From Planctomycetota bacterium (GTDB lineage: Bacteria > Planctomycetota > B15-G4): a stretch of 64,000 bases of DNA. The translations under genes and the position numbers were made by a program. The stretch is from positions 1-64,000 of the forward strand of contig JAJDEO010000013.1 of assembly GCA_029259745.1 (NCBI GenBank). Direction: 5' to 3'. Below, piece by piece: positions 1,379 through 51,448 of the stretch. The notes under the pieces are model-generated. The model made no database searches. It was not told where the DNA came from and saw nothing but the letters and a program-made list of their open reading frames with translations. The first letter of the stretch is position 1. Each line of letters begins with the position of its first letter.

Positions 1379-1484
1379 GCACTGAGCGCCATCGAGCAGG
1401 ACATGCGATGCACAGCGCCGTCGCGACACAGCCCGCTCGCCGCGAGCACCAAAGGGCGCAACGTCTCATCGCGCGGGCCTTTTT

Positions 1485-1649
1485 CCGGGTTATTCACGGA
1501 GATCGTCACGAGGTCGCGGCTGGGCCTTGCTGGCAAGGCGAAGCGAAGTTTCTGACCAGCAATGGCCATTGAGCACCCGAACCTTCGCTTGAACGCTGCC
1601 GGGAACGATTCAGGAACGACCGCAGCAGATCGTCCGTGAATCATCCGGG
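1485..1649 (+). repeat. MITE-like dispersed repeat, copy A (about 165 bp, full-length)
   Basis: Terminal inverted repeats CCGGGTTATTCACGGAGATCGTC ... GATCGTCCGTGAATCATCCGGG. Internal core GAGGTCGCGGCTGGGCCTTGCTGGCAAGGCGAAGCGA ... GTTCTGACC ... GACCGCAGCAGATCG is shared with copies at 40626, 42118, 51326, 32062, 27537, 48516 and 4398. It ends 78 bp upstream of the VIT-VWA start. Confidence 0.7.
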
Positions 1650-1726
1650 TTCGGACAATCGCGCTGTCATTGGCACGCGATGCGCAAAGGCAGTCTCCGT
1701 CGTCATCCCATTCACGGAGACACCCG

Positions 1727-3757
1727 ATGACCTTCTCGCTCGTACCGCGCACCGGCCTGCTCGCCGCAGCGCTCCTGCTGTCCCTTTCGGCTCCCGCTGC
1801 AGACGCCGGGGGCACGCTCACGCCCACCGGTGCCGTCGACCAAGAGATCAAGATCCTCGACCACCACGTCGACGTCACGCTCAACAACGGCTTCGCCCGC
1901 GTCGAGGTCTTCCAGACGTTCTTCAACCCGAACGCCTACGACCTCGAGGCGCGCTACAGCTTCCCGGTTCCGGAGAGTGGAAGTCTCTCGGAGATGTCCA
2001 TCTTCATCGGCGAAACGCAGCTCGACGGCGAGGTGATCGAGAAGACGCGCGCCGACAAGATCTACGAGGAAGAGCGCGCAGCCGGCAACGACGCCGGCCA
2101 CGCGACCAAGGAGAGCTACCTGCGCTACGAGTTCGCCGTCTCGCCCGTGCGCGCCGGTGACGAGACGAGCTTTCGCTTCGTCTACTACCAGCCGCTCAAG
2201 ATCGACACCGGCGTCGGGCGCTTTCTCTACCCGCTCGAGAACGGCGGCACCGATGAGATCGCGGATGCGTTCTGGACGACGAACACCGTCGTCGAGCGTA
2301 GCTTCTCGATGAACGTCGATGTCCGCTCGGCCGTACCACTGGCATCCGTGCGCATGCCGGGCTACGAAGCCGCCGCCGTCGTCACGCAGAAAGACCTTGG
2401 CGACTGGAACATCCGCCTCGACGCGGCTCGAGGCAGCCTCGCCGACGACATCGTCGTGTACTACAAGCTCGCCGAAGATCTTCCGGGGCGCATCGAGGTC
2501 ATCCCTTACAAGCCGACAAGCGACGCGACGGGCACGTACATGCTCGTCATGACGCCGGGCATCGACCTCGCACCGCTCAGTGGCGGTGCGGACTACGTCT
2601 TCGTGCTCGACCGATCGGGGTCGATGAAGGCCAAGTTGCACACGCTTGCCAAGGGCGTCAGGCAGGCGATCGGACAGATGCACGCCGGCGACCGCGTCCG
2701 TGTCGTCACGTTCGCAGAGGGCGCCACGGAGATCACGAAGGGCTGGACTCCCTGTACGCCTGAAAACATCGCGGGGATCGTCAGCAAGGTCGAGCGGCTC
2801 GAAGTCGGCGGCGGCACGAACGTCCATCGTGGCCTCGCGCACGCGCTCCGAGGTCTCGACGACGATCGCGCGACGAGCATCGTGCTCGTGACCGACGGCG
2901 TCGCGAACGAAGGCATCGTCGAACCGCGCGCCTTCCACGACCTGCTCTCGCAGTACGACGTGCGTGTCTTCGGCTTCCTCATGGGCAACGGCAGCAACTG
3001 GCCGCTCATGCGCACGATCTGCTCGGCCAGCGGCGGCTTCTACGCCGGCGTCTCGAACACCGATGACATCGTGGGCCAGATCCTGCTCGCGAAGAGCAAG
3101 ATCGCCTTCGAGTGTCTGCACGACGCCCGCATCGCGATCCGCGGCGTCGACACGCACGGCACGACAGGCGAGAACCTCGGCAAGGTCTTCCGCGGCCAGC
3201 AGCTCGTCTCGTTCGGTCGCTACGACAAGGCCGGCCGCGCGACGGTTTCGCTCGACGCCACACTGACAGGCGCCGACAAGACCTACTCAGCGACGTTCGA
3301 TTTCCCTGAAGTCGCCACGGAGAACCCGGAGATCGAACGTCTCTGGGCCATGGCGCAGATCGAGGACATCCAACACCGCATGGACATCGGCGCGGACGAC
3401 GAAGACGAGGGCGCCGCGGCGATCATGGACATCGGCGTGGAGTTCCAGCTTGTCACGGACGAGACGTCGATGATCGTGCTCGCCGACGAGGCCTTTGCCC
3501 GACACGGCATCGACCGGCGCAACCGCGAGCGGACGTCACGCGAGCGCTCGGCGCAAGCGACACGCAAGGCCGCACCCGTTCGCTCATACCGCGTCGACGA
3601 AGAAGCACCGGCGTTCAATCAGCGTGCCCCGCGGCCGAACTGGGGCAACGGCTCCGGTGGCGGCGCCGTCGACATCTGGATCTTGGCCCTCGCGGCAGGT
3701 GCGGTCTTCGCCGCGCGGCGTCGCCAGTCGGCGGATGAGGGGAAGGACGCGGCATGA
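1727..3757 (+). CDS. VIT + von Willebrand factor A domain protein with GlyGly-CTERM sorting signal
   Basis: ATG 1727 is preceded by GGAGA. Signal peptide MTFSLVPRTGLLAAALLLSLSAPAADA. VIT-like N-terminus, then a VWA MIDAS motif DYVFVLDRSGSM. C-terminus GNGSGGGAVDIWILALAAGAVFAARRR is a Gly-rich stretch, a TM helix and a basic cluster, the GlyGly-CTERM architecture. It overlaps the rhombosortase gene by ATGA. Confidence 0.8.
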   Translation: MTFSLVPRTGLLAAALLLSLSAPAADAGGTLTPTGAVDQEIKILDHHVDVTLNNGFARVEVFQTFFNPNAYDLEARYSFPVPESGSLSEMSIFIGETQLDGEVIEKTRADKIYEEERAAGNDAGHATKESYLRYEFAVSPVRAGDETSFRFVYYQPLKIDTGVGRFLYPLENGGTDEIADAFWTTNTVVERSFSMNVDVRSAVPLASVRMPGYEAAAVVTQKDLGDWNIRLDAARGSLADDIVVYYKLAEDLPGRIEVIPYKPTSDATGTYMLVMTPGIDLAPLSGGADYVFVLDRSGSMKAKLHTLAKGVRQAIGQMHAGDRVRVVTFAEGATEITKGWTPCTPENIAGIVSKVERLEVGGGTNVHRGLAHALRGLDDDRATSIVLVTDGVANEGIVEPRAFHDLLSQYDVRVFGFLMGNGSNWPLMRTICSASGGFYAGVSNTDDIVGQILLAKSKIAFECLHDARIAIRGVDTHGTTGENLGKVFRGQQLVSFGRYDKAGRATVSLDATLTGADKTYSATFDFPEVATENPEIERLWAMAQIEDIQHRMDIGADDEDEGAAAIMDIGVEFQLVTDETSMIVLADEAFARHGIDRRNRERTSRERSAQATRKAAPVRSYRVDEEAPAFNQRAPRPNWGNGSGGGAVDIWILALAAGAVFAARRRQSADEGKDAA

Positions 3758-4437
3758 CAGTGAGCCCGGCGCGTGTCGTTCCGATTCCTCGCGACCACGA
3801 TGGCCGCGCGTCGGGCTCCGATGCGTGGCGGCGGGCAGCTCACTTGCCCGTCGTCACGCTCTTGATCGCCTGCTCGGCCCTCGTCGCGGAGCTCTTGCCC
3901 GGCGCCGGGCCACTGCTCGAGTGGCACCGCGCCGCCGTCGCGAAAGGTGAACTCTGGCGCCTCGTCACGGCCCACCTCGTGCACTTCGGCTGGGCCCACC
4001 TGGCCTACGACGTCGGCGCGTGGCTGCTCCTGGCCGGCCTCAGCGAGCGCCGCGGACGCCGCACGATGGTCGCCACCCTGGCCGTCGCCGCCGCGCTGAT
4101 CCCGCTCGCCGTCGCCGTCACGCGCCCGGACCTGCTGACCTACCGCGGGCTCTCGGGCCTCGACTCGGCACTCTTCGCGCTGCTCGTCACGGACGTGCTG
4201 CGCGATCCGTCGACGCCCCGCCGCGGCCTCATCGCGCTCGTCGCCGTCGGGTTCGTCGCCAAGCTCCTCATCGAGTGCAGCGGAACCGGTGTCTTCGTCG
4301 TCACCGAAACCTTCGTGCCCGTGCCGATCGCCCACGCCGTTGGCGCCCTGGTTGGGCTCGCGATGGCGCTCAAACCCCGCGCACACCCGCGCGATGACCC
4401 GGGAAGGTTCGGCCCGGTCGCAGACGATCGTCCATGA
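3754..4437 (+). CDS. rhombosortase (rhomboid-family intramembrane serine peptidase, GlyGly-CTERM processing)
   Basis: Multi-TM protein with rhomboid motifs HLVHFGWAHLAYD, GLSGLDSALF (catalytic Ser) and AHAVGALVGL (His). It is translationally coupled to the upstream GlyGly-CTERM protein. The last 12 codons and the stop (PGRFGPVADDRP*) are contributed by MITE copy H. Confidence 0.75.
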   Translation: MTVSPARVVPIPRDHDGRASGSDAWRRAAHLPVVTLLIACSALVAELLPGAGPLLEWHRAAVAKGELWRLVTAHLVHFGWAHLAYDVGAWLLLAGLSERRGRRTMVATLAVAAALIPLAVAVTRPDLLTYRGLSGLDSALFALLVTDVLRDPSTPRRGLIALVAVGFVAKLLIECSGTGVFVVTETFVPVPIAHAVGALVGLAMALKPRAHPRDDPGRFGPVADDRP

Positions 4438-4447
4438 ATCACCCGGG
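4398..4447 (+). repeat. MITE-like repeat, copy H (50-bp minimal copy)
   Basis: CCCGGGAAGGTTCGGCCCGGTCGCAGACGATCGTCCATGAATCACCCGGG lies exactly between the convergent stop codons of the rhombosortase (TGA 4435-4437, inside the element) and the YciI-like gene (TCA 4448-4450). Confidence 0.6.
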
Positions 4448-4744
4448 TCAGCCCATCCCCAGATGGTTGTTCTCTTCGTGCGAGAGCAACCACTCTCGAA
4501 CCTCGCACGTCGAACTCCCTTCGGTGACGAACGGATCGGAGTTTGCAATCGTCCGTGCCGCTGCGAGCGAGTCGGCGCGCAGGACGATCATGCCCCCGGC
4601 TCCGTCTTCGAAGGGGCCAGCAAGGATGAGTTGACCCTGAGCATCAAGCGCTCGGAGGAACGCGACGTGGGCCCTGACGAGGGCCTCGCTGCGTGCTGTG
4701 CCCGGCGTCCGTTCCAACGTCACCACGTAGCAGCGATCGCTCAT
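4448..4744 (-). CDS. YciI-like protein
   Basis: MSDRCYVVTLERTPG...AHVAFLRALDAQGQLILAGPFEDGAGGMIVLRADSLAAARTIANSDPF matches the YciI family. ATG 4744 is chosen over the upstream ATG at 4849. Confidence 0.65.
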   Translation of the reverse strand: MSDRCYVVTLERTPGTARSEALVRAHVAFLRALDAQGQLILAGPFEDGAGGMIVLRADSLAAARTIANSDPFVTEGSSTCEVREWLLSHEENNHLGMG

Positions 4745-4938
4745 GGCCGAAGAGTCGACGTCGCTTGGATCCGACATCTTTGCTGATACAGCCTCTTTGC
4801 TGACACGACGACCGACTCCCGACCAGCGCAACGAAAGCGTTTCCGCCACAAGCTACGATGCTTCACACAAAGGGAAGCTCGTCGGCATCTTACTTCCGCT
4901 CGACGCTTCAGACTTCGAACCCTCCCGGAGGATTAGCC

Positions 4939-9994: not shown

Positions 9995-11248
9995 ATGAAG
10001 ACCTCCATCATCTCACGCCTGGCGCTGTCGACTGTCGCCGCGCTGGCGCTTGCTGTCCCCGCGTCGAACGCCCAGTGCTTCGGCGACGACAACCTCGACA
10101 ACGGCCCATGCTGCGGCCTCACGCAGGCCAACCTTCCCGACTTCCCCGGCGTCCAGATGGGCGGACTGGGCGTCTGTTGGGATGCCTGCGCGGTGGTCGA
10201 CAAGAACAACATCCGCGTCGAGTGGGGCACCCTGAACCAGACGGTCTGCGGGCAGTACGTCACGCCGCTGCGCGTCATCGACGGAGCCACCGGCACGATC
10301 CTGCTCGACGGCCCGATGACGCTCGACTACTCCCGCACGTGGATCGAGATCGACCCGACCGGCATCGCGCATCAGGTCTGGCGCTTCGTCGCGAAGGTCG
10401 ACCTGACGGCCACGGCACCCGCCGGCGCCGTGCCACCGTGCCCGGTGCCGCTCAACCTCGTTCAGAACCCGAACGCCACGGCGTTCTTCTACGGGTACCT
10501 CGACTACGTCGACTGCCAGACCACGCCCGGCTTCGGTCCGCGCAACGCGCTCGTGCTCTACCACCCCTGCGACCGCTTCATGCACACGCCGGGCTTCTCG
10601 AGCCAGCCGGGTGCAGCTCACGGCGATGACGCGTTCGCGATCGTTGCGCCGCACAACGCCGCCCAGCCGTTCACGCCCGTGAACCAAAAGGCGCCCGGCG
10701 GTCCGGTCATCGAAGGCGCGACGCGCAACGTCTCGCCGTCGCCGCAGGTCTGCTTCGTCGAAGACCAGGTCTCCGTCGGATCGATCGCCGCTCTCGCCGC
10801 GGGTTGCCTCTGCACCGTGCAGAAGAACCCCAAGCAGCACACGATCCGTGACTTCAACGCCATGACGACCTGCCCGTCCCCCGTCGGCGTCCCCGGCGAC
10901 TGGGACAGCCAGGCCGTCAACTTCCCGACGCTGCCCTGGTTCGAGATGGTGACGACGAGCATCGGCTTCTGGAGCACGCCCGGCCTCTACCCCGGTGAAG
11001 AATCGGCCTGGGCCGACGAGGGTCTGTTCATCCACCAGGACGTCTGCCAGGGCTCGTTCATCGAGATCAAGTACGGCGGCTCGACGAACAAGGGCTGGGA
11101 CGCCCTCTCGTTCGCGGGCAACCAGCTCGGCTCGTTCACGGACATCGCCGACAACTGGTCGGCACCGCTGTTCGGCCCCTACAACCTGCCGATCTTCGGC
11201 AGCTCGCAGCCGACCGATCGCGTCATCCACGTCAACCTCGCGCCCTGA
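9995..11248 (+). CDS. secreted Cys-rich hypothetical protein
   Basis: Strong RBS AAGGAGAGG. Signal peptide MKTSIISRLALSTVAALALAVPASNA. No recognisable domain. Confidence 0.6.
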   Translation: MKTSIISRLALSTVAALALAVPASNAQCFGDDNLDNGPCCGLTQANLPDFPGVQMGGLGVCWDACAVVDKNNIRVEWGTLNQTVCGQYVTPLRVIDGATGTILLDGPMTLDYSRTWIEIDPTGIAHQVWRFVAKVDLTATAPAGAVPPCPVPLNLVQNPNATAFFYGYLDYVDCQTTPGFGPRNALVLYHPCDRFMHTPGFSSQPGAAHGDDAFAIVAPHNAAQPFTPVNQKAPGGPVIEGATRNVSPSPQVCFVEDQVSVGSIAALAAGCLCTVQKNPKQHTIRDFNAMTTCPSPVGVPGDWDSQAVNFPTLPWFEMVTTSIGFWSTPGLYPGEESAWADEGLFIHQDVCQGSFIEIKYGGSTNKGWDALSFAGNQLGSFTDIADNWSAPLFGPYNLPIFGSSQPTDRVIHVNLAP

Positions 11249-11270
11249 AGCAGGCTGAGGACTGACACCC

Positions 11271-11305
11271 GAGGGCATCGACCGCCACGCGCGGTCGATG
11301 CCCTC
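11271..11305 (+). terminator. perfect 15-bp stem-loop (GAGGGCATCGACCGC-CACGC-GCGGTCGATGCCCTC)
   Basis: Begins 23 nt after stop TGA 11246-11248 and is followed by a T-containing stretch. Confidence 0.55.
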
Positions 11306-11336
11306 GCTCATTGTCCGAAACGGTTAGAGTCGGGTC

Positions 11337-11870
11337 ATGTCGACGACCCGACTCGAGAAAGACGGCAAGCCCAGCCTGACGCGCCTACGGCGCACGCGCC
11401 CCGATCTCGAGCTTCGCCCGACGCGGCTGCGGGCGATCGTCGGCATGGGCCACGCATTCAGCAGCGGCACCCTGTTCGGCTACTTCCTGGTGCTCGCAGT
11501 CGACATGCTCATCACGGAGCGTGCTCCGAAGGACGACGAGCTCTGGCTCCCGGTCGTCGCCGCCGCAGCGGCGTTCGTGGTGGGCGCGATCTTCTCCGTC
11601 ACGATGGAGCGTTTCGGACAGCTCGGTCTCGTGGGCGACAAACTCATCGTCACCTTCCGAAACCTCGAGAACCCGGCAGTCGTCCCATGGGACACGATCG
11701 ACCAGGAGCGCACGCGTCGTGGGTCGCTCCTGCACTCCCTCTTCGGGCACCGGCGCATCGTGCGCATCGACGAGCGCCCGCTGTACATCCCGCGCGCCTT
11801 CTACTCCGACGACACGTTCGAGGGCTTCCTCGACGACTGCGAACAGCACATCCGCTCGAACGTGAGCTGA
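11337..11870 (+). CDS. membrane protein with bacterial PH-like (bPH_2/DUF304-like) domain
   Basis: Two predicted TM helices (LFGYFLVLAVDMLI, VVAAAAAFVVGAIFSV) followed by a roughly 90-aa soluble domain. The start is uncertain and an internal Met is possible. Confidence 0.45.
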   Translation: MSTTRLEKDGKPSLTRLRRTRPDLELRPTRLRAIVGMGHAFSSGTLFGYFLVLAVDMLITERAPKDDELWLPVVAAAAAFVVGAIFSVTMERFGQLGLVGDKLIVTFRNLENPAVVPWDTIDQERTRRGSLLHSLFGHRRIVRIDERPLYIPRAFYSDDTFEGFLDDCEQHIRSNVS

Positions 11871-14694: not shown

Positions 14695-16209
14695 ATGATC
14701 TCGAGACTACGCATCACGTCACTTCTCGTGCTCGCCGCAGCCTTCAACCCCGCCGCTGCGCAGGACGAAGAGCCCCGCGACATCCGCATCGATCACCACT
14801 TCGACTCCGGATGGGTCAGCAACGACACCGATTCCGAAGCCGTCATCATCGCCTTTCCCGTTCACATCCAGACCGCGCGCTCTCTGCGCCTCTACTTCGA
14901 CGACATCCAGCTGTCGGGCAACACGTTCGACGGGACCGGGTCGACCCTGCGCATCACGGCGCTGCGCGACGACGCGATCCAGTCCATGAACGCCGATCAC
15001 GTCGCGCAGTGGCAGAACTCGAGCTGCTACTTCAACGGCAACGCGGTGATGGTCGAGGTGATCGCCCAGCCCGGCACCGGGCCCAACCGCGTCGCGCTCG
15101 AGTCGATCGACATGGGCCTTGCGTGGAATGAGTACGAGTCGATCTGCGGCGTCGACGACCGCCAGCCGTCGAACGATCCACGCGTTTCGCGTCTGCTGCC
15201 TGTGGGCTGTACGTCGTGGCTCATCGACGATTGCGGCAAGTGCTACCTCACGGCAGGTCACTGCGTCGGGTTCATCAACGCCGTCGAGTACAACGTGCCG
15301 TTCTCGACCTCGGGTGGCTCTTGGAATCATCCGGGCCCCGAGGATCAGTACGCCGTCGACCCCGCGTCGATCCAGTCGAACGGTGGCGGCGGCGTCGGCA
15401 ACGACTACGCCTACTTCGGCACGTTCGCGAACTCGAACACGGGTCTGACGGCCTTCGAGGCTCAGGGTGATGCGTTTGAACTCGTTGCTCCGCCGAGCAC
15501 GACGTCTGGAAACACGATCCGGATCACGGGCCACGGTACTGACAGCACGCCGAACTCGACCTACAACCAGGTGCAGCAGACGCACGTCGGCCCGCTCGTC
15601 GGCGCGAGCACGTCCTCGCTCCAGTACGCAACCGACACGACGGGCGGCAACTCCGGCTCGCCCGTGATCTGGGAGCAGACCGACCAGGCGATCGGCATTC
15701 ACACGCACGGCGGCTGCTCGAGCGGTGCCAACAACGGCACGGCGTTCACGCAGAGCGGACTGCAATCGGTACTCAACAACCCACAGGGCGTCTGTGCACT
15801 CGGCTCGACGAGCGGTGTCTTCAGCGACCTCGGGTTCTCGAAGGACGGCTTCTTCTTCGGTGCGCCGGAGCTCGCGGGCTGCGGCTCCCTCCAGCCTGCC
15901 TCGGCGATGACGCTCACGCTCGCGATGCCGTTCAACCTCAACGGCCTCGTCGCCACGCGTTTCATCGGCCTCGCGCAGATCAACGCACCGTTCAAGGGCG
16001 GCACGCTCGTGCCCGCCCCGACGATCGTGCTTGGCGGCCTTCCGCTCGAGAACAACGGTCCGCCGGGCGCCACACTCATCGTCGACGCCATCTGGCCTGC
16101 CGGCATCCCGTCAGGCACCGAGATCTTCATCCAGGACTGGGTGAACGTGCCGTTCGCCCTCGGCGACGAACTCGTCGCGTCCAATGCGCTGAAACTCACG
16201 GCCCCCTGA
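14695..16209 (+). CDS. secreted trypsin-like serine protease with conserved C-terminal sorting-like domain (CTD family member 1)
   Basis: Signal peptide MISRLRITSLLVLAAAFNPAAAQ. Catalytic His in CYLTAGHC and Ser in GGNSGSP. The last roughly 85 aa (FIGLAQINAPFKGGTLVPAPTIVLGGLPLENNG...WPAGIPSGTEIFIQDW...SNALKLTAP) are homologous to the C-termini of four other proteins in the window. Confidence 0.8.
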   Translation: MISRLRITSLLVLAAAFNPAAAQDEEPRDIRIDHHFDSGWVSNDTDSEAVIIAFPVHIQTARSLRLYFDDIQLSGNTFDGTGSTLRITALRDDAIQSMNADHVAQWQNSSCYFNGNAVMVEVIAQPGTGPNRVALESIDMGLAWNEYESICGVDDRQPSNDPRVSRLLPVGCTSWLIDDCGKCYLTAGHCVGFINAVEYNVPFSTSGGSWNHPGPEDQYAVDPASIQSNGGGGVGNDYAYFGTFANSNTGLTAFEAQGDAFELVAPPSTTSGNTIRITGHGTDSTPNSTYNQVQQTHVGPLVGASTSSLQYATDTTGGNSGSPVIWEQTDQAIGIHTHGGCSSGANNGTAFTQSGLQSVLNNPQGVCALGSTSGVFSDLGFSKDGFFFGAPELAGCGSLQPASAMTLTLAMPFNLNGLVATRFIGLAQINAPFKGGTLVPAPTIVLGGLPLENNGPPGATLIVDAIWPAGIPSGTEIFIQDWVNVPFALGDELVASNALKLTAP

Positions 16210-24759: not shown

Positions 24760-25338
24760 GTGGGCGAGGCCGAAGCAGACGAAACGACGGAGATTCTCCA
24801 CGAGATTGCCAAAGGCAATCGCGCGGCTGTCGATCGACTCGCGCCAGCCGTCTATCGCGAGCTCCATGGCCTTGCGCAAAGCATGCTGCGCCGCGAGGTG
24901 CGCGACCACACGCTACAGCCGACAGCCCTCGTCAACGAAGCGTACCTCCGACTGATCGACCAAGACCGGGTCGAGTGGGCATCGCGTGCGCACTTCTTTG
25001 CGATCGGCGCCAAGGCCATGCGACGCATCCTCATCGACCACGCGCGGAACCGCAAGCGACTCAAGCGCGGTGGAAACCATGTGCGCGTGATCGTCGACAC
25101 CGAGCTTGCCCTCTCCTTCGACCGTCCCGAGAGCTTCCTCGCACTCGACGAAGCTCTCGTCAAACTACGGGGACTCGACCGACGCCAATGCGACGTCGTC
25201 GAGATGCGGTTCTTTTCAGGCATGACCATGAGCGAGATTGCCGAGGCGCTGAACACATCCAAGCGCACCGTCGAGGGCGACTGGATGCTGGCACGTGCTT
25301 GGCTGCGCCGTGAGTTGAGCGACCCAAGCGTCGAATGA
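24760..25338 (+). CDS. ECF sigma factor of the Ser/Thr-kinase-associated (TIGR02999-like) type
   Basis: N-terminus EILHEIAKGNRAAVDRLAPAVYRELHGLAQSMLRREVRDHTLQPTALVNEAYLRL is characteristic of that family. Region 4 FSGMTMSEIAEALNTSKRTVEGDW. Start GTG 24760 (alternative GTG 24733). The stop overlaps the kinase start (ATGA). Confidence 0.7.
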   Translation: MGEAEADETTEILHEIAKGNRAAVDRLAPAVYRELHGLAQSMLRREVRDHTLQPTALVNEAYLRLIDQDRVEWASRAHFFAIGAKAMRRILIDHARNRKRLKRGGNHVRVIVDTELALSFDRPESFLALDEALVKLRGLDRRQCDVVEMRFFSGMTMSEIAEALNTSKRTVEGDWMLARAWLRRELSDPSVE

Positions 25339-27536
25339 GTCGCGATCAGCACAAGCGGGTCAGGAAGCTCTTCCTGCGTGCCGTGCGACGACCGGCCGAC
25401 GAACGCACCGCGTTGCTCGACGCCGAGTGCGACGACCAAGAACTTCGCGCCGACGTGCAGTCACTGCTCGACCACCATGTCGACGACGTCGCGACCGACA
25501 GCCTCGACGACATGCTCCCTGAAGTGCTGGTGCCGAGCAGTGGTCTCCGCAGCGCCTTTCAGTTCATGGCGAGGCAGCGCCCTTTCGTCACGGCCGCGCT
25601 GACAACGCTTCTCGTCGCGTCTGTTGGCATGCTGCTGCTCGCCATCGTCATGCAGCGGGAGATGCGTCACGTCCAAGCTGCCTCGCTCCGCACGATCCAT
25701 CGGGTGAGCCTCGAGGCTCTCGAGCAGGCTCTCAACACCCATCGCATGCAGGTTGTCGACTGCGCCGGTATGCCCAGCGTGCGTGCCGTGGTCCAAGACA
25801 TGGTCGCCCTCGAGGTCGGCGAACGAACGGACGAGGAGAGCGCGGACATCCCCAAGCTGCGCGCGCTCAACGAACGCATGAACGTGTTGATCGCGTCGTG
25901 GCTCGAAACGCTGCCCGGCGCGACGGGCTTCGGGATCGCTGACGAGCGCGGATACGTCCTCGCGATCGACGCCAACGACCGTGATTGGCTCGGCCGCAGG
26001 CTCTCCCCGATGGGTCGCCAGCTGACAACAGCAGTCATCGCCGCTGGACCACGCGTCCTGCTGCCATTCAGCGAGGATGAGCTCGTCGACACACCGCTAC
26101 GCCCCGACTCGATCAACACACTCGCCTTTACCGCTCCCATCCGCGGCAGCGACGGCACGCCGGTTGCCGCACTCGCAGTCTTCGTGGACGTCGAAGCCGA
26201 CTTCACGCGCATCCTCTCGCTCGCGCGGAGCACACCCGCAGGAACGACCTACGCGTTCGACGACCGCGGTGCCATGTTCTCGGCGCAACAGATCGACGAC
26301 GCCCACGACAGCCTGGCTTACGATGACAAAGGACGTCTCTTGCTCCTCGACCCCGGCGCCGACATCACACAAGGCGAGACGCCCGACCCCGTTTCGCTAC
26401 GTCCGACGACGCGCATCGTGCGCCAGGCGCTCGCCGAACGATCGAACCCCGAAGGGCCGCGTACCGGTGAGGTCAGCGACTACCGCGACATCCGCGGAGT
26501 AGAGTCCTTCGGGTTCTGGACGTGGCTCGACGAGTTCGGCTTCGGCGTGATCACGGAGATCAGCGATCGCCAAGCGTCGACGCCGATCCGTCCGCTGCGC
26601 AGCACGAGCGTGGGATTGATGGTCGCCACCATCGGGGCGCTGCTCGCCCTCTTCATCACGACGGGCGCTGCGAGAATGCTCCGTTCACGCCTCGCGCACA
26701 TCCGCCGACTCGGCAGCTACACGCTCGTCGAACACCTCGGCGTCGGCGGCATGGGCGACGTGTTCTTGGCGCGTCACGACATGCTCAAGCGCCCCACCGC
26801 CGTCAAGGTCCTCAGTGCGCGAGCGCTCACCGAGGTCGGCATCGCGCGCTTCGAACGCGAGGTGCAGTTCATGTCGCTGCTCACCCACCCGAACACCGTC
26901 GGCATCTACGATTACGGCCTCACCACCGAAGGGCTGCCGTACTTCGCGATGGAGTACGTCGACGGCACGACGCTCAAGTCGCTCGTCGAAACGGAGGGCG
27001 CGCTGCCCCTCGCGCGCGCCGTCGGCATCCTCGAACAACTCTGTGGAGCCCTCGCCGAGGCGCACACGCTGGGGCTCGTCCACCGCGACGTGAAACCTCT
27101 GAACATCATGCTGACCGAGCGGGGCGGTCGGCACGACTTCGTCAAGCTCCTCGACTTCGGACTCGCCAAGGACGTCCAACGCCGCCAGGACCTCACGCTC
27201 ACGTCCGCGACGACCGGCACGCCGCTCTACATCGCTCCCGAAGTCCTGCGCAGCCCTTCGGCGACGTCACCACGCTCGGACGTCTACTCCGTCGGCATCA
27301 TCGCCTACTACCTCGTGACGTCACGCGAGGTATTCGAGGGCGACACGGCTCTCGAGCTGTTCGCCCAGACCCTGACCGAAGACGTGCCGACACTCGCGGC
27401 ACTCACCGGCATCTCGCCGGACTTCGAGCAACTCATCCGCGACTGCCTCGCGAAGGATCCCGAGGAACGCCCGCAACACGCCGGCGCCGTCCTCGAACGA
27501 CTGCACGCGATCAGGGCCGCCATCGTGCCGACCTAG
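25335..27536 (+). CDS. Ser/Thr protein kinase with periplasmic sensor domain
   Basis: N-terminal ECF-associated motif (LFLRAVRRPADERTALLDAECDDQELRADVQSLLDHH), TM, a roughly 270-aa extracytoplasmic domain, a second TM, then the kinase domain (VGGMGDVFLARH, HRDVKPLNIML, DFGLAKD). Stop TAG 27534-27536 directly abuts MITE copy F. Confidence 0.85.
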   Translation: MSRDQHKRVRKLFLRAVRRPADERTALLDAECDDQELRADVQSLLDHHVDDVATDSLDDMLPEVLVPSSGLRSAFQFMARQRPFVTAALTTLLVASVGMLLLAIVMQREMRHVQAASLRTIHRVSLEALEQALNTHRMQVVDCAGMPSVRAVVQDMVALEVGERTDEESADIPKLRALNERMNVLIASWLETLPGATGFGIADERGYVLAIDANDRDWLGRRLSPMGRQLTTAVIAAGPRVLLPFSEDELVDTPLRPDSINTLAFTAPIRGSDGTPVAALAVFVDVEADFTRILSLARSTPAGTTYAFDDRGAMFSAQQIDDAHDSLAYDDKGRLLLLDPGADITQGETPDPVSLRPTTRIVRQALAERSNPEGPRTGEVSDYRDIRGVESFGFWTWLDEFGFGVITEISDRQASTPIRPLRSTSVGLMVATIGALLALFITTGAARMLRSRLAHIRRLGSYTLVEHLGVGGMGDVFLARHDMLKRPTAVKVLSARALTEVGIARFEREVQFMSLLTHPNTVGIYDYGLTTEGLPYFAMEYVDGTTLKSLVETEGALPLARAVGILEQLCGALAEAHTLGLVHRDVKPLNIMLTERGGRHDFVKLLDFGLAKDVQRRQDLTLTSATTGTPLYIAPEVLRSPSATSPRSDVYSVGIIAYYLVTSREVFEGDTALELFAQTLTEDVPTLAALTGISPDFEQLIRDCLAKDPEERPQHAGAVLERLHAIRAAIVPT

Positions 27537-27632
27537 CCCGCACTTCTCATGACGATCTCCCGCGCCTGCATCTGAATCCTTCCTGGCAAGGCTCAGCTGC
27601 AGCCTCGCGGCGACCCTCGTGCATCACTCGGG
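27537..27632 (-). repeat. MITE-like repeat, copy F (about 96 bp, internally deleted)
   Basis: TAG|CCCGCACTTCTCATGACGATCT ... CAAGGCTCAGCTGCAGCCTCGCGGCGACCCTCGTGCATCACTCGGG aligns in reverse orientation with copies A-D. It starts at the kinase stop codon. Confidence 0.6.
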
Positions 27633-27703
27633 CGCGCTCGGCTCGGCGCGGGCGCGAGACGCGAAGATCGGCGCGCCGGGTGCCGCGTCCTCGGCTCAGA
27701 GAC

Positions 27704-28987
27704 TCAGGGGCCGAAGACAGCCTCCAGCGCGTTGCTCAACGCCACGCCCTTCGGTTGCGAGCCGTCTGCGATCGCCGCCTGGAGGATGGCCGTGAAGGGG
27801 CCGCTCCCGCCGGGCACGGGCAGCGCGAGCTCGCCGGAGCTGTCGGTGCCGAAGGACAGCGTCAGCAAGATCGGCACCGGCACGAGCGTGCCGCCCTTGA
27901 ACGGCGCAGGGTTCTGCGCCAGCCCGACGAACAGGGCCACGGGCGCGTTCGCTGCCGCTTGTGTGAGCGAGAGGGTCGCGAGGCCACCGGAGTCGAGCGC
28001 ATCGCCACACAACGAAAGCGCAGCGTTGCCGGGTCCGCCGAAGCCGAGGTCGGTCTGGCACGTCTCGCAGACGAGTCGCTCGATACGCAGGTCGTCGATG
28101 GCCGCCTCGATGATCGACCCGTCGCCGTTGTCCGAGGCGATGAACCGCAGGCGCATCTGCGAGGTCGGCGCGACGAGGTCGGCGACGACAAAGCGGTGCT
28201 GCATCCAGCCGCCCACCGTCTCCGAGCCCGTCGGACCGACCACCTCGACACTCGTCCACGATGAACCGCCGTTGTTCGTGATGTCGACTTCGAAGATGTC
28301 CGCTCCGGCCGAACCGCCGGTCGAGTTGGAGTACCAGCGCCAGTAGCTGATGAGCGCGTCCTCGCCCGCGAGGTCGAAGAGATTCGTCGTCAGAGTCGTC
28401 TGCCCGCCGTCGACGTCGTTGTCACCGAGCCCGCCACCGAACGAGCCCTGCCCCGTGACGTAGCACTGCGTGCCGGACGGCGTGTGGTCGTCCTCCGGCT
28501 GGGCGCTCGTGCCGACGGGGTTGACGCGTTCCCAAATGCCCGTCGTGGCCGTGTCGGCCGGAGCCCCCACCGACCAGCCCGGGTTCGACTCGAGATCGAC
28601 TTCCGAGAGCAGCACCAGGTCGGATGCCGCGACCGTCGAGTAGCGCGCCGTCGGCGCACCGGCCGGCGCGGTCCAGGTCACACCGTCGGTCGTCTCGGCG
28701 CTCACGTACCACGAAACTTCCGAGCCACACTCGAACGTCGGCAGCAGCGCGCGGTAGTCGTCTCCACCGAGAACGGCGAGCGGCAGGTCGAACAGGCCCG
28801 CACCGGCGTCGTAGTGGAACGTCGCACTTCCCGGCACGATCGACACGCCAGGCTCGGGGTTGATCGTGACGTCTACCACCTCGTTGCTCGTGGAAAACAG
28901 CTCCGGGATGCCGTCGATGACGGTGATCGTGAGGTCGGGATCACCGAGACGCCAGAGAAACAGGCCCTTCTCGATGTCACTGCCCAC
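27704..28987 (-). CDS. C-terminal fragment: MAM-like (choice-of-anchor J-like) domain + conserved CTD (CTD family member 2)
   Basis: MAM-like motifs (PSGTQCYVTGQG, ALISYWRWYSN, GSIIEAAIDDLRIE). C-terminal LAQNPAPFKGGTLVPVPILLTL...ALSNALEAVFGP is the conserved CTD. It has no start codon of its own (GTG only), so it is the continuation of the upstream fragment. Confidence 0.55.
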   Translation of the reverse strand: MGSDIEKGLFLWRLGDPDLTITVIDGIPELFSTSNEVVDVTINPEPGVSIVPGSATFHYDAGAGLFDLPLAVLGGDDYRALLPTFECGSEVSWYVSAETTDGVTWTAPAGAPTARYSTVAASDLVLLSEVDLESNPGWSVGAPADTATTGIWERVNPVGTSAQPEDDHTPSGTQCYVTGQGSFGGGLGDNDVDGGQTTLTTNLFDLAGEDALISYWRWYSNSTGGSAGADIFEVDITNNGGSSWTSVEVVGPTGSETVGGWMQHRFVVADLVAPTSQMRLRFIASDNGDGSIIEAAIDDLRIERLVCETCQTDLGFGGPGNAALSLCGDALDSGGLATLSLTQAAANAPVALFVGLAQNPAPFKGGTLVPVPILLTLSFGTDSSGELALPVPGGSGPFTAILQAAIADGSQPKGVALSNALEAVFGP

Positions 28988-32061: not shown

Positions 32062-32160
32062 GCCCGGGCTGTCAGGGAGAGCGTCGCGAAGCCGCAGCTG
32101 GGCCCATGCTGGCAAAGCGAAGCGACCTCTCTGACGTGATTCAACCCCCGAGGATCAGGG
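32062..32160 (+). repeat. MITE-like repeat, copy E (5' half only, 3'-truncated)
   Basis: CCCGGGCTGTCAGGGAGAGCGTCGCGAAGCCGCAGCTGGGCCCATGCTGGCAAAGCGAAGCGACCTCTCTGAC...GAGGATCAG aligns with the left half of copies A-C. The right TIR is absent. Confidence 0.5.
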
Positions 32161-40169: not shown

Positions 40170-40625
40170 GAAGAACTTCATGAGTTCGTCTTACTCGGGC
40201 GTGTCGCGATAGCCGCTGCCGTACGAGGTAAGCGCGAGTGCTCTTCGTCGATCGTCTCGAAGAGGATGACGTTGGAGAGCTTGTCGGCGTCCTGCTTCAG
40301 CACCTCGGGCCAGTTCTTCGCGACGTCGGGATCGTGCCGCCGACGCGGAGGTCGCTCTCCACGAGCGGTGACGGCCACGCGACCCAGCCGTCAACCGTCG
40401 TGTGGCATCCCAGACGGCACGTTGCGGCGCCGCGATGGAAACCTCCTGGACGAGGATCCGCTCGCCGGCATCGGTCACGTCGACGCGACTGACCACGTGC
40501 CCGGTTGCGTCGCCCGTCGGCGGGACATCGAGGGCAGCCACGACGAGCGGCAGCAGCGTTGCCGCAACGAAGATGACGAGGCGCATCGAGCCGCTCCGGT
40601 GAGTGGGTTACGATCACCCGCGTCA

Positions 40626-40802
40626 CCCGGATCATCCATTGACGATCGTCGCGAAGTCGCAGCTAGGCCTTGCTGGCAAAGCGATGCGAGGGTTCTGACC
40701 GGAGGCGGCCCATTTTGGCCGTTGAGGATCAGAAACGTCGCTTCGACGCCGCCAGGAAGGATCGACATGCGACCGCAGCAGATCGTCCGCGGATGATCCG
40801 GG
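40626..40802 (+). repeat. MITE-like repeat, copy B (about 177 bp, full-length)
   Basis: TIRs CCCGGATCATCCATTGACGATCGTC ... GATCGTCCGCGGATGATCCGGG. It is the best-preserved internal sequence (GTTCTGACC...GAGGATCAGAAACGTCGCTTCGACGCCGCCAGGAAGGATCGACATGCGACCGCAGCAGATCG). It sits between divergent genes and ends 36 bp before ATG 40839. Confidence 0.7.
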
Positions 40803-40838
40803 CTCAGTGCCCCAGACCCCGCTCGGCTCGAGTTCCCG

Positions 40839-42020
40839 ATGAACGCCCTCTCGATCCTCCTCACCTGTCTCCTTGCCGCATCGAGCCTGGCCTCGCCCGT
40901 GCAAGAGGCACGTACCGTCGACCCCGTCGAACCCGCCACGCTCGGAGACGCCTCCAACGTGCACCGCGCCGGATCACTGTTCCTCTCAGGAGGGCTCGAG
41001 CCTGGCGATGTCGACACGCTCGTCGAGCGCGGGATCACGCGCGTGATCAGTCTGTGTCAAGACGGCGAGGTCGATTGGGACGAGCAAGGTGCGCTGCGTG
41101 CGGCCGATATCAGGTTCATCTCGATTCCCCTGCGCGCGCCCGACACGTTCACGGACACGGCATTCCACACCCTGCGCATGCACCTCGCGACCGGGTCCGA
41201 GCCCACGCTCCTGCACTGCGCGTCGGCCAGTCGCGTCGGTGGTCTGTGGATTCCCTTCCGCGTCCTCGACCAGGGCGTGCCGATCGAACGCGCCGTCGCC
41301 GAAGCCAAGACGATCGGCATGGGCAATCCGGTCTACGAGCAGCGGGCGCGGGCGTACGTCGCACGGCAGCTCGCGCGAACGCGCGCACTCGAACCGTCGA
41401 GCATCAACGAGGGCATCAACACGTCGTACCTCGACCCCGATCTCGACGTCGACGCATTCGTCGCGCGCTTCGAGACCGAGAGCCGCGAGATCTTCACGTC
41501 ACGACACGCGATCGTCGCGTCGCTCGGCCTTGCTCCGGGCGACCGCGTCGCCGATGTCGGTGCGGGCACGGGCCTTTTCACGCCACTCTTCGCCGACTCC
41601 GTGACGCCGAACGGTTGGGTCTACGCCGTCGACATCGCTCCGCGCTTCCTGCAGCGCATCCTCGCAGCCGCCGAGGAAACCGACACGCGGCACCTCTCGG
41701 CCGTCCTGTGTCCCGAGGACTCGATCGGCCTCGCGCCCTCGACGATCGACGCGGCGTTCGTCTGCGACACGTATCACCACTTCGAGTATCCGCGGGCAAC
41801 GATGACGTCGATCCACGACGCCCTGCGACCGGGTGGCAAGCTCGTCGTCATCGACTTCCACCGCATTCCGGGTCTATCGAAGGACTGGGTCCTCGGACAC
41901 GTGCGCGCCGGACAGCAGGCGTTTCGCGCCGAGATCGAATCGGTCGGCTTCGAACACGTGCGCGACCTCGAGGTGGCCGGACTCGTCGAGAACTACGCGA
42001 TGGAGTTCGTGCGCCCCTGA
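40839..42020 (+). CDS. fusion protein: dual-specificity-phosphatase/rhodanese-like N-terminal domain + class I SAM-dependent methyltransferase
   Basis: Signal-like N-terminus. The HCASASRVGG P-loop-like motif resembles the DSP/Blh family. Methyltransferase motif I VADVGAGTGLFT and GGKLVVIDF. Confidence 0.65.
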   Translation: MNALSILLTCLLAASSLASPVQEARTVDPVEPATLGDASNVHRAGSLFLSGGLEPGDVDTLVERGITRVISLCQDGEVDWDEQGALRAADIRFISIPLRAPDTFTDTAFHTLRMHLATGSEPTLLHCASASRVGGLWIPFRVLDQGVPIERAVAEAKTIGMGNPVYEQRARAYVARQLARTRALEPSSINEGINTSYLDPDLDVDAFVARFETESREIFTSRHAIVASLGLAPGDRVADVGAGTGLFTPLFADSVTPNGWVYAVDIAPRFLQRILAAAEETDTRHLSAVLCPEDSIGLAPSTIDAAFVCDTYHHFEYPRATMTSIHDALRPGGKLVVIDFHRIPGLSKDWVLGHVRAGQQAFRAEIESVGFEHVRDLEVAGLVENYAMEFVRP

Positions 42021-42117
42021 GGATCCGGGTTCGGCGGCGCTGACGACGCCCTCGTGCGTGTCCAAGGGCATCGCCAGAGCAACTCGCGCTCCGTAGAGGC
42101 CGCGGCCCATTCCTAGC

Positions 42118-42263
42118 CCGGGTCATGGACGATCTGCTGCGGTCGCATCTGGATCCTTTCTGGCTGCGTCGAAGCGACGTCTCTGATCCTCAATGGCCCT
42201 CGCATCGCCTTTCCAGCAAGGCCCAGCTGCAACCTCGCGACGATCGTCCAGGAATGACCCGGG
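42118..42263 (-). repeat. MITE-like repeat, copy C (about 146 bp, reverse orientation)
   Basis: CCCGGGTCATGGACGATCTGCTGCGGTCGC ... GCGACGATCGTCCAGGAATGACCCGGG. It is preceded by TAG as in copies F and G. Confidence 0.7.
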
Positions 42264-42397
42264 CCTGGCAGGCTGTCGAAAAACTGCGACTCCGGGACGC
42301 CGTCTCGCCGCGCACGGCTTCACGCGTGACGCGCCGACCCCACGGCCGCGGCGCGACTGGTATCTTGGCGGTCAACGTCCTTCCTTGGAGCCCCACC

Positions 42398-44035
42398 ATG
42401 TCCCGCTTGCCGCTCGCCTCTGTTCTCGGCGCCCTCGTTCTCGCGCCGACCAGCCTTGCGTCCGACCCTAGCGACGTCGTCATCCAAGCCGTCGTGCTCG
42501 AGGGTGACACTATCAGCGGCATCGGCGACGTCACGACGACGGGCGCTGTCGCCGTCAACAACGCCGGCACATGGCTCGTCGAAGTCGACACGAACAACCC
42601 CGACACCGACATCGACGGCGCCATCGTCGGTGCCAGCGGAGTCGTGTTCGCCGAAGGTCAGTCGATCGCCACTCCGACCGGCGCGCTGCTCGACTCGTTC
42701 GGCGCGATCTCCGGCGCGCTCAACAACGCTGGCGACCTCGCCTGGAACCTCTTCCTCGACAACACCGTGGGCGGCGGCAACGACGACTCGGGTATCTACT
42801 TCAACACCGCGCAGGTGGTCCAAGAAGCAGGCATCGCGCTCGTCACGGGCCTCTCGGTCGGCACGACCTGGGAGGGCTTCTTCTCGGTCCACCACAACGA
42901 CGCCAACCAGGTGCTCGCGATGACGAGCGTCGACGACCCGGCCATCGCGACCAGCGTCGATCGCGCGCTCGTGCTCTTCACGATCGACGGCACGGGCACG
43001 CCGACGAGCGCAGAGGTCGTCCTCAAGGAAGGCGACATCCCGCCCGGTCAGACAGAAGCCGTCGCCGACATGGAGACGAGCGTGCACAACTTCGTCCTCA
43101 ACGATGCCGGGCAAACGCTGCTGATCGCCGACCTCGCCGGCGACACGGCCGTCGATCACGCCGTCTACATGGACGGCACCCTGCTCGCGCAAGAGGGTTC
43201 GCCGTCTCCGGTGACAGGCCGCAACTGGGACCTGCTGTCGCTCGCCGAACTCGACCTCAACAACGCGGGCAGCTGGGTGCTCAGCGGATCGATCGAGGGC
43301 GACACCGCCACGGACGACATCATCGTCGTGGACGGCGACGTCTTCATCCAAACCGGCGACAGTCTGCCGGCGACGGGCGGATCGCCGATCACGTCGCTCG
43401 GGACGACGGGCTCGTCGGGCCCCGTGTACATCGGCGACAACGGCAACGTGCTCTGGTCGGCCGAGTGGAACGGTGGGAGCTCGAAGGGACTCTTCCTCAA
43501 CGACCGCCTGTTGGCCGAGATCAACCTGACCTCGATCGGCGGGTTCGTGCTTGAAGAGATCTTCGCCGTCACCGAGGGCTACGCGCTCAGCGATGACGGC
43601 CAGAAGGTCATCTTCCGCGGACGCCTTTCGGGCAGCATCGACGGAGCGTTCCTGATCGACGTGGGTCCGTGGGTCAGCCTCGGCAAGGGACTCGCCGGCG
43701 TCAACGGTGTGCCATGCCTGACGGGCTCGGGCACGCTCGCCGCGGGTGACGACGTCACGCTGTCACTGCGCGATGCAGCGCCCTCGGCCGTCACGAACCT
43801 CGTGATCGGATTCACGGAACTCTGCGCACCGTTCAAGGGCGGCACGATCGTGCCGAGTGTCGACGTGCTCATCGGCGGCCTCCCCACCAACGGGTTCGGC
43901 GACCTCGCACTGACGGCACCCTTCCCGGCCGGCGTCCCCGCGGCCACCGACCTCTACTTCCAGTTCTTCACGTCAGACGCAGCAGCGATCAAAGGCATCT
44001 CGGCCTCGAACGGCGTGCGCGGGACGACGCCCTGA
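42398..44035 (+). CDS. secreted repeat protein with conserved C-terminal domain (CTD family member 3)
   Basis: Signal peptide MSRLPLASVLGALVLAPTSLASD. Roughly 60-aa internal repeats (..DG.L.AQEG......G..L.S....NNAG.W.). C-terminus NLVIGFTELCAPFKGGTIVPSVDVLIGGLPTNGFGDLALTAPFPAGVPAATDLYFQ...SASNGVRGTTP. Confidence 0.75.
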   Translation: MSRLPLASVLGALVLAPTSLASDPSDVVIQAVVLEGDTISGIGDVTTTGAVAVNNAGTWLVEVDTNNPDTDIDGAIVGASGVVFAEGQSIATPTGALLDSFGAISGALNNAGDLAWNLFLDNTVGGGNDDSGIYFNTAQVVQEAGIALVTGLSVGTTWEGFFSVHHNDANQVLAMTSVDDPAIATSVDRALVLFTIDGTGTPTSAEVVLKEGDIPPGQTEAVADMETSVHNFVLNDAGQTLLIADLAGDTAVDHAVYMDGTLLAQEGSPSPVTGRNWDLLSLAELDLNNAGSWVLSGSIEGDTATDDIIVVDGDVFIQTGDSLPATGGSPITSLGTTGSSGPVYIGDNGNVLWSAEWNGGSSKGLFLNDRLLAEINLTSIGGFVLEEIFAVTEGYALSDDGQKVIFRGRLSGSIDGAFLIDVGPWVSLGKGLAGVNGVPCLTGSGTLAAGDDVTLSLRDAAPSAVTNLVIGFTELCAPFKGGTIVPSVDVLIGGLPTNGFGDLALTAPFPAGVPAATDLYFQFFTSDAAAIKGISASNGVRGTTP

Positions 44036-48119: not shown

Positions 48120-48515
48120 ATGCTGTCACTTCGCCCCGCCGTCACGGCCCTCGTCCTGCTCGCGCTGACGTCATGTTCCGCGACGCGTCTCTACGATGGC
48201 CCCGCGCGCCTCGAGCACGAGGTGGTTCGCATCAAGGGCATGAGCAACGCCGACCCGCTGTCGGGCTTCACCGGCACCTCCGTCTGCGCGATCGACGGAC
48301 GCGAACTCGAGGGATGCCCACGCCACGTCGAGTTCCTGCCCGGAACGCACGAGCTACGCCTCGAGAGGCGTCGCTACGGCCTGAACGCCGCGCAGGCGAC
48401 CGTCGTGCAAGACTTCGCGCCTGGCGAACGCCACGTCATCGGCATCAGCTACAGCGCCAATGACGGCATGAAGCCGGCGTTGATCATCACCGACATCGTG
48501 ACCGCAGACGGTTAG
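48120..48515 (+). CDS. hypothetical lipoprotein
   Basis: Lipobox LALTSCS. It lies 31 nt downstream of the amidase gene. Stop TAG 48513-48515 is immediately followed by MITE copy G. Confidence 0.5.
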   Translation: MLSLRPAVTALVLLALTSCSATRLYDGPARLEHEVVRIKGMSNADPLSGFTGTSVCAIDGRELEGCPRHVEFLPGTHELRLERRRYGLNAAQATVVQDFAPGERHVIGISYSANDGMKPALIITDIVTADG

Positions 48516-48600
48516 CCCGGGTGATTCATGGACATCGGCTGCGACCGAATCCGAATCCTACCTGGCAGCTCCTCACGACGATCGTCCGTGAACCATCCGC
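48516..48600 (-). repeat. MITE-like repeat, copy G (about 85 bp, internally deleted, reverse orientation)
   Basis: TAG|CCCGGGTGATTCATGGACATCGGCTGCGACCG ... CACGACGATCGTCCGTGAACCATCCG. It fills the gap between two convergent genes. Confidence 0.6.
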
Positions 48601-48613
48601 TGATTCTGGCGCG

Positions 48614-49240
48614 TCAGGCTCGCGGTTTGCCGAGCACCCAGGTCGTCATGCACCGCAGACCGGCAACGTTCGTCGTCTTGATCGGGTCGAGGAGTTCACC
48701 GCCGAGCCGACGTGAGTGACCGAGCAAGTCGTTCTCGTCGACGAGGTAGCGCTGCGAGCCATCGGGCAACTGGAACCAACCCGGTTGCGCCGGGACGACG
48801 TGGACGCGTTTCTCGATCCCGATGGACGACGCCAGGCGCGACCAGAACAGCCCGCCCTCGGCGAGCACGCGCCAGCACTCGTCGAGACACGCAACGAACA
48901 CGGCACGCGATGCACTGAAGTGCAGCACGGCATTGCAGATGACGACATCGAAGGCCCCGTCGTCGAACGGGAGCTGCTCGAGCGCCGCGACCTCGAAGCG
49001 TGCGTTCGGCCTGCCCGCGAAGCGCTCTCGAGCCTCGGCGACCGCCTCTTCGCTGCGGTCCACTCCCACGACATCGAAACCGGCCTGTGCGAGGTAGTCC
49101 AGGTTGCGGCCCGCGCCACAGCCTGCGTCGAGCACGCGCATCCCCGGGACGATCCGCCCGCGCAGGAGCTGATCGAAGAGATACACATCGATTGAACCGA
49201 AGAGGTCGCGCAGGCCCTCGGGCGGCAATGGTGTGGACAA
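48614..49240 (-). CDS. class I SAM-dependent methyltransferase
   Basis: Motif [17 protein letters not shown] and post-I DVVGVD. The start is uncertain: TTG 49240 (GGAG 6 nt upstream) is preferred over the GTG at 49339, whose N-terminus is not protein-like. Confidence 0.55.
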
Positions 49241-51246: not shown

Positions 51247-51325
51247 GTCGTTCGCGGGCATCCACTTCGCCGGTCCACCACATGGACGAATCGACATCGA
51301 CACATGCGTACACACCTGAACAGCG

Positions 51326-51448
51326 CGGGTTCATGCACGATCGTCGCGAGGTTGCGGCTGGGCCCGCTGCGCATCGGGAAACATCGCTGCCGCGCTGCGA
51401 GGGAGGATTCAGAGGCGACCGCAGCAGATCGCCCGTGAATAATCCGGG
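51326..51448 (+). repeat. MITE-like repeat, copy D (about 123 bp, central deletion)
   Basis: CGGGTTCATGCACGATCGTCGCGAGGTTGCGGCTGGGCC ... GGCGACCGCAGCAGATCGCCCGTGAATAATCCGGG. It ends 54 bp before the start of the giant CHAT gene. Confidence 0.65.

Follow-up and report, generated by a model that had tools for sequence, protein, structure and literature searches.

The window, that is, the whole 64-kb stretch of Planctomycetota DNA analysed here (67% G+C), contains one palindromic non-coding repeat in eight copies of 50-183 bp, identified by a repeat search combined with a profile search. Three of the eight copies lie in spacers between convergent genes, and four lie upstream of genes, in promoter regions. 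Among the former, copy H (4398-4447 in its core, plus strand, with similarity extending over 4387-4447) comprises the right-hand part of the repeat only, and lies where a rhombosortase gene (3754-4437, plus strand, 227 aa) converges with a YciI-like gene (4448-4849, minus strand). Copy F (27537-27633, minus strand), a short form and the most diverged copy, occupies a 167-nt convergent spacer downstream of the gene for Ser/Thr kinase 2 (25335-27536, plus strand). Copy G (48516-48601, minus strand), also a short form, fills most of the 98-nt spacer between a small lipoprotein gene (48120-48515, plus strand, 131 aa) and the stop codon of a convergent methyltransferase gene (48614-48616). Of the remaining copies, A (1480-1651, plus strand) is a long form between tandem genes, and B (40624-40804, plus strand) is a long form in a divergent promoter region. 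Copy C (42117-42265, minus strand), a further long form, and copy D (51324-51450, plus strand), a medium form, have a terminus adjoining CTAG (42113-42116) and TTAA (51449-51452), respectively, at places where no gene ends. Copy E (32062-32158, plus strand) consists of the left half only, and lies upstream of a minus-strand YtkA-like gene, 36 nt from its start codon (32026).

The repeat is thus short (<300 bp), non-coding and dispersed, with two further copies in a related contig (described below). Inverted termini of about 25 nt, CCCGGGTKATTCAYGGACGATCGTC...GACGATCGTCCRTGAATCAYCCGGG, flank a hairpin core of variable length and are present in copies A, B, C, D, F and G; full copies are near-palindromes that differ in length distally in the hairpin. 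When three or fewer mismatches are allowed, the 22-nt terminal repeat GATCGTCCRTGAATCAYCCGGG has 5 and 3 matches, compared to none in 100 shuffles. Nearly every terminal repeat contains TGAATCA or TGATTCA, which places a TGA on both strands. Terminal repeats also contain a perfect 10-bp palindrome, GACGATCGTC (at 4423-4432, 40641-40650, 42239-42248 and 48577-48586), located next to TGAATCA and CCCGGG and forming with them three consecutive mini-palindromes per terminal repeat, an arrangement which suggests a candidate binding site for a dimeric protein. None of the 46 window ORFs scanned against Pfam is a transposase, and the whole window gives no Rfam match at the gathering score. A single class-I methyltransferase gene (40839-42020) lies between copies B (plus strand) and C (minus strand), which are inverted relative to each other and whose arms, 92% complementary over 72 nt, form the closest pair in the window; this layout resembles a composite MITE-gene-MITE unit.

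The predicted hairpins are strong for the long copies (-79.9 kcal/mol, z -6.3 for copy C) and moderate for the three copies in convergent spacers, with z about -2.2 to -2.4 on one strand (-31.8 kcal/mol, z -2.4 for H; z -2.2 on the minus strand for F; z -2.3 for G). An earlier reading of the DNA, made from the sequence only, had proposed that these hairpins may double as transcription terminators between convergent genes. The proposal finds no support in the sequence, as hairpin-plus-U scans detected no U-tract after the hairpins and no terminator-like site overlapping H, F or G; on a role at the RNA level more generally, the sequence is neutral. Covariation between the arms, considered as a sign of a selected hairpin, was also discarded, with compensatory changes in 3 of 19 pairs and an unfavourable covariation term.

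Coding ends at copies H, G and F

In alignment, copy H matches the right half of the other copies, with similarity starting from about 4387-4391, and its left 'CCCGGG' aligns with an internal GCCAGG of the longer copies. The rhombosortase stop codon (TGA, 4435-4437) lies inside this half copy and is the top-strand TGA of the terminal repeat. The sequence-only reading had assigned the last 12 codons of the gene and its TGA to copy H; the assignment is correct for the stop codon, but the repeat-derived coding end is longer, comprising the last 13-16 codons (up to 16, PRDDPGRFGPVADDRP). The match to TIGR03902 reaches the end of the model at residue 206 of 227, and in 19 homologues the tails past the last conserved glycine vary in length and sequence and are not alignable. 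By these comparisons, the rhombosortase core is complete, with the repeat-derived tail replacing or extending a variable region. The gene upstream encodes a VIT/VWA protein (1670-3757) ending in a GlyGly-CTERM-like tail (GGGAVDIWILALAAGAVFAARRR...), and its stop codon overlaps the rhombosortase start codon (ATGA at 3754-3757); the two proteins are likely a pair of substrate and sorting enzyme.

On its other side, copy H ends with CCCGGG (4442-4447) and touches the stop codon of the YciI-like gene (TGA, the complement of 4448-4450), which begins at the base right after H, as the sequence-only reading had stated. The public gene call for this protein is 109 aa, starting from 4777. Its C-terminus, EENNHLGMG, is kept to the last residue, since homologues with 47-71% identity end in EENNH[LM]G[MR][GA], while the stop codon itself is TGA here and TAG and TAA in the two relatives whose DNA was read. 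The YciI-like protein thus ends where its homologues end and is unchanged by the repeat. The junction of the rhombosortase gene, copy H and the YciI gene is identical in another assembly built from the same reads (Logan contig L014, 4.8 kb, SRR15505515). Positions 1-37 of this short-read contig correspond to about 1615-1651 of the window, so that its first base falls within the right terminus of copy A; assemblies of this organism break at these repeats, an effect that may also limit the contiguity of the metagenome-assembled genome (MAG).

The lipoprotein gene ends in TAG (48513-48515), directly followed by the CCCGGG of copy G, in agreement with the earlier placement. The 60 homologues of the lipoprotein are mostly 115-136 aa in length, and the closest (51% identity, 130 aa) aligns from residues 7-130 to residues 7-130, the two proteins ending within one residue of each other (...VVTAD versus ...IVTADG). 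The lipoprotein is accordingly full length, and unchanged by the repeat, when set against its homologues.

Ser/Thr kinase 2, which consists of an N-terminal sensor region and a C-terminal kinase domain, likewise ends in a TAG (27534-27536) directly followed by the right terminus of copy F, and here too the contact is as first described. Its catalytic domain is complete, with only 20 aa after the subdomain-XI RP motif. It was compared with 27 homologues that share its architecture, with a sensor region ahead of the C-terminal kinase domain, at 34-46% identity; 25 of them extend 38-109 residues past the RP motif and carry a conserved W-x(7-12)-W-[WV] segment. Within window 27528-27536, the TAG of kinase 2 aligns with the first tryptophan of this W...WW segment, and no remnant of the segment is encoded in any frame downstream of copy F. 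Judged by this alignment, the conserved tail is missing from kinase 2. The loss may have resulted from the insertion, from an associated deletion or from an earlier TGG-to-TAG change, and the tail may have been lost before the element arrived. TGG becomes TAG by one transition, which would at the same time generate the CTAG adjoining the terminus of F.

The idea that insertion has trimmed or re-terminated coding regions thus does not hold in general, and is supported in part. The end and stop codon of the rhombosortase gene are repeat-derived and the kinase 2 tail is missing, but the lipoprotein and YciI end like their homologues, and therefore these two coding sequences were not trimmed. Coding ends matching those of homologues, which the sequence-only reading had named as the observation that would speak against it, are found for the lipoprotein and YciI. 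In sum, the C-terminus is replaced in the rhombosortase, probably lost in kinase 2 and untouched in the lipoprotein and YciI. This comparison of C-termini rests on distant homologues because the protein collection contains no near relative: identity to the best homologue is at most 49% for the rhombosortase, 45% for the kinase, 51% for the lipoprotein and 71% for YciI, and the first three are each singletons at 90% identity. The databases searched contain no close relative without the insertions and no empty site was seen, so that the ancestral states are what we infer from distant proteins. Public gene calls list rhombosortase, kinase and lipoprotein products with exactly these lengths and ends, and for each of the four genes a family or homologues back the reading frame as far as its end.

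Stop-type triplets at the right terminus

All the flush contacts with genes (YciI, kinase and lipoprotein) are made by the same terminus, the right one in the orientation of the profile. Its outward flanks are TTAG (G), CTAG (F), CTAG (C), TTAA (D), CTGAG (B), CTGA (H) and CCGAA (A), and it therefore carries or adjoins a stop-type triplet, TAG three times, TAA once and TGA twice. The tetranucleotide YTAR, which has only 19 sites in the 64 kb (a frequency of 3e-4 per position-strand), adjoins four of the seven right termini (binomial P = 2.7e-13), and a stop triplet adjoins five of the seven (P = 1.3e-8). The association between stop triplets and terminus is beyond chance, and it is very significant from few copies because YTAR is nearly absent from the genome: base composition predicts 195 CTAG and 48 TTAA in the window, where only 8 and 4 occur, respectively. 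If insertion is taken as confined to convergent spacers, the flush placement of G in its 98-nt spacer and of F in its 167-nt spacer has a likelihood of about 1/14 x 1/71, a figure obtained by simple arithmetic from the ORF and copy coordinates. Of the 19 YTAR sites, three are stop codons, two of these carrying an element, and eight intergenic sites are empty. The stop codons of 36 confident genes in the window comprise 29 TGA, 6 TAG and 1 TAA.

The sequence-only reading had described the leading TAG-CCCGGG of the element as apparently acting as a built-in terminator codon. A stop-type triplet does recur at the right terminus, but a strictly built-in TAG is doubtful, as three of the seven right termini are without TAG or TAA, and copies G and H, identical in their 18 terminal bases, continue with CTA in G and TCA in H. 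An element-associated head is favoured by the YTAR at sites terminating no gene (copies C and D, and L27a), and by the opposite (left) termini, which mostly carry CAG, a near-symmetric partner of TAG. In addition, an in-frame TGA follows two codons past the junction stop codon at both G (TAG CCC GGG TGA) and H (TGA CCC GGG TGA). Because the ends of the element are not fixable to the nucleotide from 7-9 diverged copies, the source of the stop triplet may be either the host or the element. The TAG beside copy C was considered as the end of a gene and rejected, since the coding sequence of the methyltransferase stops 94 nt before it, and its C-terminus looks natural.

No consistent target-site duplication was detected at the flanks of seven copies, and YTAR is present on one side only, although the copies are diverged and old duplications could have decayed. 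Placing the boundary differently (at CCCGGG, AG-CCCGGG or CCCGGG-YT) yielded 2-3 nt repeats (AGG for C; TCA or CA for B; AAC for D), which are inconsistent among copies and were discarded. A tagged end without target-site duplication fits better with movement by an HUH/tyrosine-type transposase than with a DDE-type MITE.

Explanations for the placement of the repeat

The observations to be explained are the copies with their junctions, a stop-type flank that is not random, and the condition of the four C-termini. We favour, with a probability of about 0.6, a non-autonomous palindromic repeat of MITE or REPIN kind, which settled at gene boundaries with effects differing from gene to gene. With a stop-type triplet at one terminus and TGA on both strands of the terminal repeats, such an element would close any ORF running into it, either right at the junction or no more than a few codons further on. 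For the lipoprotein and YciI, the element would have come to lie at the nucleotide after the ancestral stop position, leaving the protein unchanged, with a stop codon that is either native or re-formed at the junction. The rhombosortase ORF would run into a half copy and take its last 13-16 codons and TGA from the repeat, most likely after a deletion in which the original gene end and the left half of the element were both lost. In kinase 2, the TAG would stand where the conserved tryptophan codon is expected, with the conserved post-kinase segment gone. The order of these events, the mode of movement, and the RNA-level effect of a hairpin starting at a stop codon are all parts of the account that we infer.

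Several other explanations were weighed against the same observations. An element which carries its own TAG and inserts into the 3' ends of coding sequences, so that all three proteins are truncated or re-terminated, is unlikely. It would account for the TAG or TAA at four of seven right termini, including those of copies ending no gene, for the symmetric CAG at the left termini, by which YAG may belong to the inverted repeat, and for a kinase without its conserved tail. It fits poorly with the three right termini lacking either triplet and with the different triplets that flank the identical 18-mers of G and H; moreover, the lipoprotein and YciI keep their ancestral C-termini, where random insertion would have to strike the native stop codon exactly. 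Target-site choice has better prospects, while still being doubtful: the element would integrate without duplication next to YTAR or T-R-R, the stop codons would be native and the coding sequences unaltered by insertion, and the kinase tail and rhombosortase end would have been lost in separate events. Stop codons would then make up a large share of the tolerated targets, because TA-containing tetranucleotides are almost absent from coding sequence. The occupation of two of the three stop codons among the YTAR sites, the unaltered lipoprotein and YciI, the lack of a target-site duplication at any copy and the presence of a CTAG-flanked copy in a second genome are in line with such a choice, while the eight empty intergenic sites are not; nor are the CTGA, CTGAG and CCGAA that adjoin H, B and A in place of YTAR, the CTAG at the opposite terminus in the related genome, or the lack of a candidate transposase among the window ORFs. 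A stop-codon-homing element, integrating without duplication and with nucleotide precision directly 3' of T-R-R (TAG, TAA or TGA), is a speculative and distinctly improbable proposal. Real stop codons would be its main safe landing sites because the genome is almost devoid of TA-containing tetranucleotides, and the flush hairpin would tune translation termination or 3'-end stability.

It is also improbable that the hairpins are RNA elements selected by the host at 3' ends (terminators, mRNA stabilisers or brakes on translation termination) rather than selfish insertions. Such a function would suit the stable predicted hairpins and the three copies that fill convergent spacers. Experiments on REPs near stop codons and translation termination have reportedly been carried out by Liang, Rudd and Deutscher in 2015. 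Downstream of ORFs, REPs are believed to function as RNA elements (PMC3733652), and a passage of PMC6815119 cites REPs near stop codons as reported regulators of translation termination. Host selection is however difficult to reconcile with the four copies in promoter regions upstream of genes, with half copies and internally deleted copies, which look like decay rather than conservation, and with the absence of U-tracts, of an Rfam family and of more than a little covariation between the arms. That the pattern is due to chance, or to errors of assembly or gene calling at repeats, is hardly credible. Short-read assemblies do break at repeats, as L014 does by starting inside copy A, and spurious ORFs abound at 67% G+C; against this, the binomial P of the flanks is 1e-8 to 1e-13, the H junction is the same in two assemblies, and support from families or homologues reaches the ends of all four genes. 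A settled non-autonomous repeat, with consequences that differ by gene, accordingly remains the preferred explanation.

Known repeat families and related sequences

Among the closest parallels are the GTAG-REPs, reported in Planctomycetes, with Rhodopirellula baltica named, and termini of these repeats often provide a TAG stop codon (PMC3733652, Di Nocera, De Gregorio and Rocco 2013). Tagged REPs are found mainly between convergent and tandem ORFs, with the convergent ones <20 bp from both 3' ends (PMC3733652). The window family resembles GTAG-REPs and REPINs in being a palindromic extragenic repeat with a ...TAG tag at one end and no target-site duplication, and also in its placement, with F and G directly after TAG stop codons, H touching a TGA stop codon, and three of eight copies in convergent spacers. 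By contrast, each unit consists of a single long hairpin (50-183 bp) bounded by 25-nt TIRs, instead of a 20-40 bp stem-loop or a dimer of these, as the termini pair across the whole element and the arms do not fold alone. Its tag is YTAG or TTAA, sometimes CTGA, none of the seven heads being GTAG, and the window contains no RAYT (Y1 transposase) gene.

Overlap of MITEs with coding ends is known from Coxiella burnetii, in which QMITE1 and QMITE2 reach 1-50 bp into functional genes at their 3' ends, and an in-frame QMITE copy supplies the 33 C-terminal residues of EnhC (PMC5896051). The authors of that study also consider that the hairpin might affect mRNA and termination (PMC5896051). QMITEs are unrelated in sequence, belong to an AT-rich host and have direct repeats at their ends, and a preference of one terminus for stop triplets, as in the window family, is not reported for them. 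Enterobacterial RU/ERIC-type repeats and the Correia elements of Neisseria are small TIR repeats which have fused to host ORFs to give new C-terminal peptides, and stop-rich versions of them stay intergenic (Delihas, PMC2229807, PMC2759123). Their termini differ from those of the window family. Correia elements duplicate TA, whereas no target duplication is seen in the window family. TIRtrons, which are associated with tyrosine transposases and include moderately abundant TIR families without coding capacity (PMC3733652), and IS200/IS605-type elements share with it the lack of target-site duplication, a short motif at one end and palindromic ends. The window, however, contains no Y1/HUH transposase, the ends of its repeat are inverted copies and not two distinct subterminal hairpins, and the motif is found at the other end in the related genome.

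The repeat is therefore a new family of the general REP/MITE kind, belonging to neither named family, and is filed outside REP and MITE because it has no 20-40 bp stem-loop, no GTAG and no target-site duplication. Repeat termini giving TAG stop codons, and MITEs overlapping gene 3' ends, have already been published, and the present family opens no new question in this respect; for mobile-element biology, it adds one more clean case of a palindromic repeat terminus that goes with stop codons. For annotators, it illustrates that in repeat-rich, GC-rich genomes the final codons of an annotated gene, stop codon included, may derive from a repeat. Testable phenotypes are the tail of the rhombosortase and a kinase 2 without its post-kinase segment.

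Exact-pattern scans returned 13 loci in genome representatives and 12 loci in JGI/ENA metagenome contigs, each of them an isolated short match, either in an unrelated taxon or within a coding region, and rejected as a further copy, and gave no match in viral contigs. Two clearly related copies are instead present on a 134-kb contig carrying a 69%-identical YciI homologue (L031, ENA ERZ25072999), at 10405-10616 and 11187-11401, and share with the window family the termini and the GATCGTCGCGAG and CGCAGCAGAT blocks. On account of these two copies, the repeat family is common to at least two related genomes. The copy at 11188 has CTAG at its terminus, opposite to the one tagged in the window, where no gene ends, and a 20-kb stretch of the contig contains only four YTAR sites. 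In the region 10303-11401 of this contig, the two copies flank a 131-aa ORF, the first of them starting about 100 nt downstream of the stop codon of the YciI homologue; a YciI gene with a repeat copy downstream is thus found in both genomes, while the other neighbour genes differ. The closest homologues with an organism name come from Planctomycetia and Pirellulales MAGs.

A separate observation concerns the motif ...APFKGGTLVP..., which is C-terminal in four secreted-looking proteins of the window and visible at the DNA level (15964-16013, 43805-43854 and 45487-45536; 27871-27931 on the minus strand). The 427-aa member of this group has no Pfam match, and the motif may represent a common C-terminal sorting or anchoring domain.
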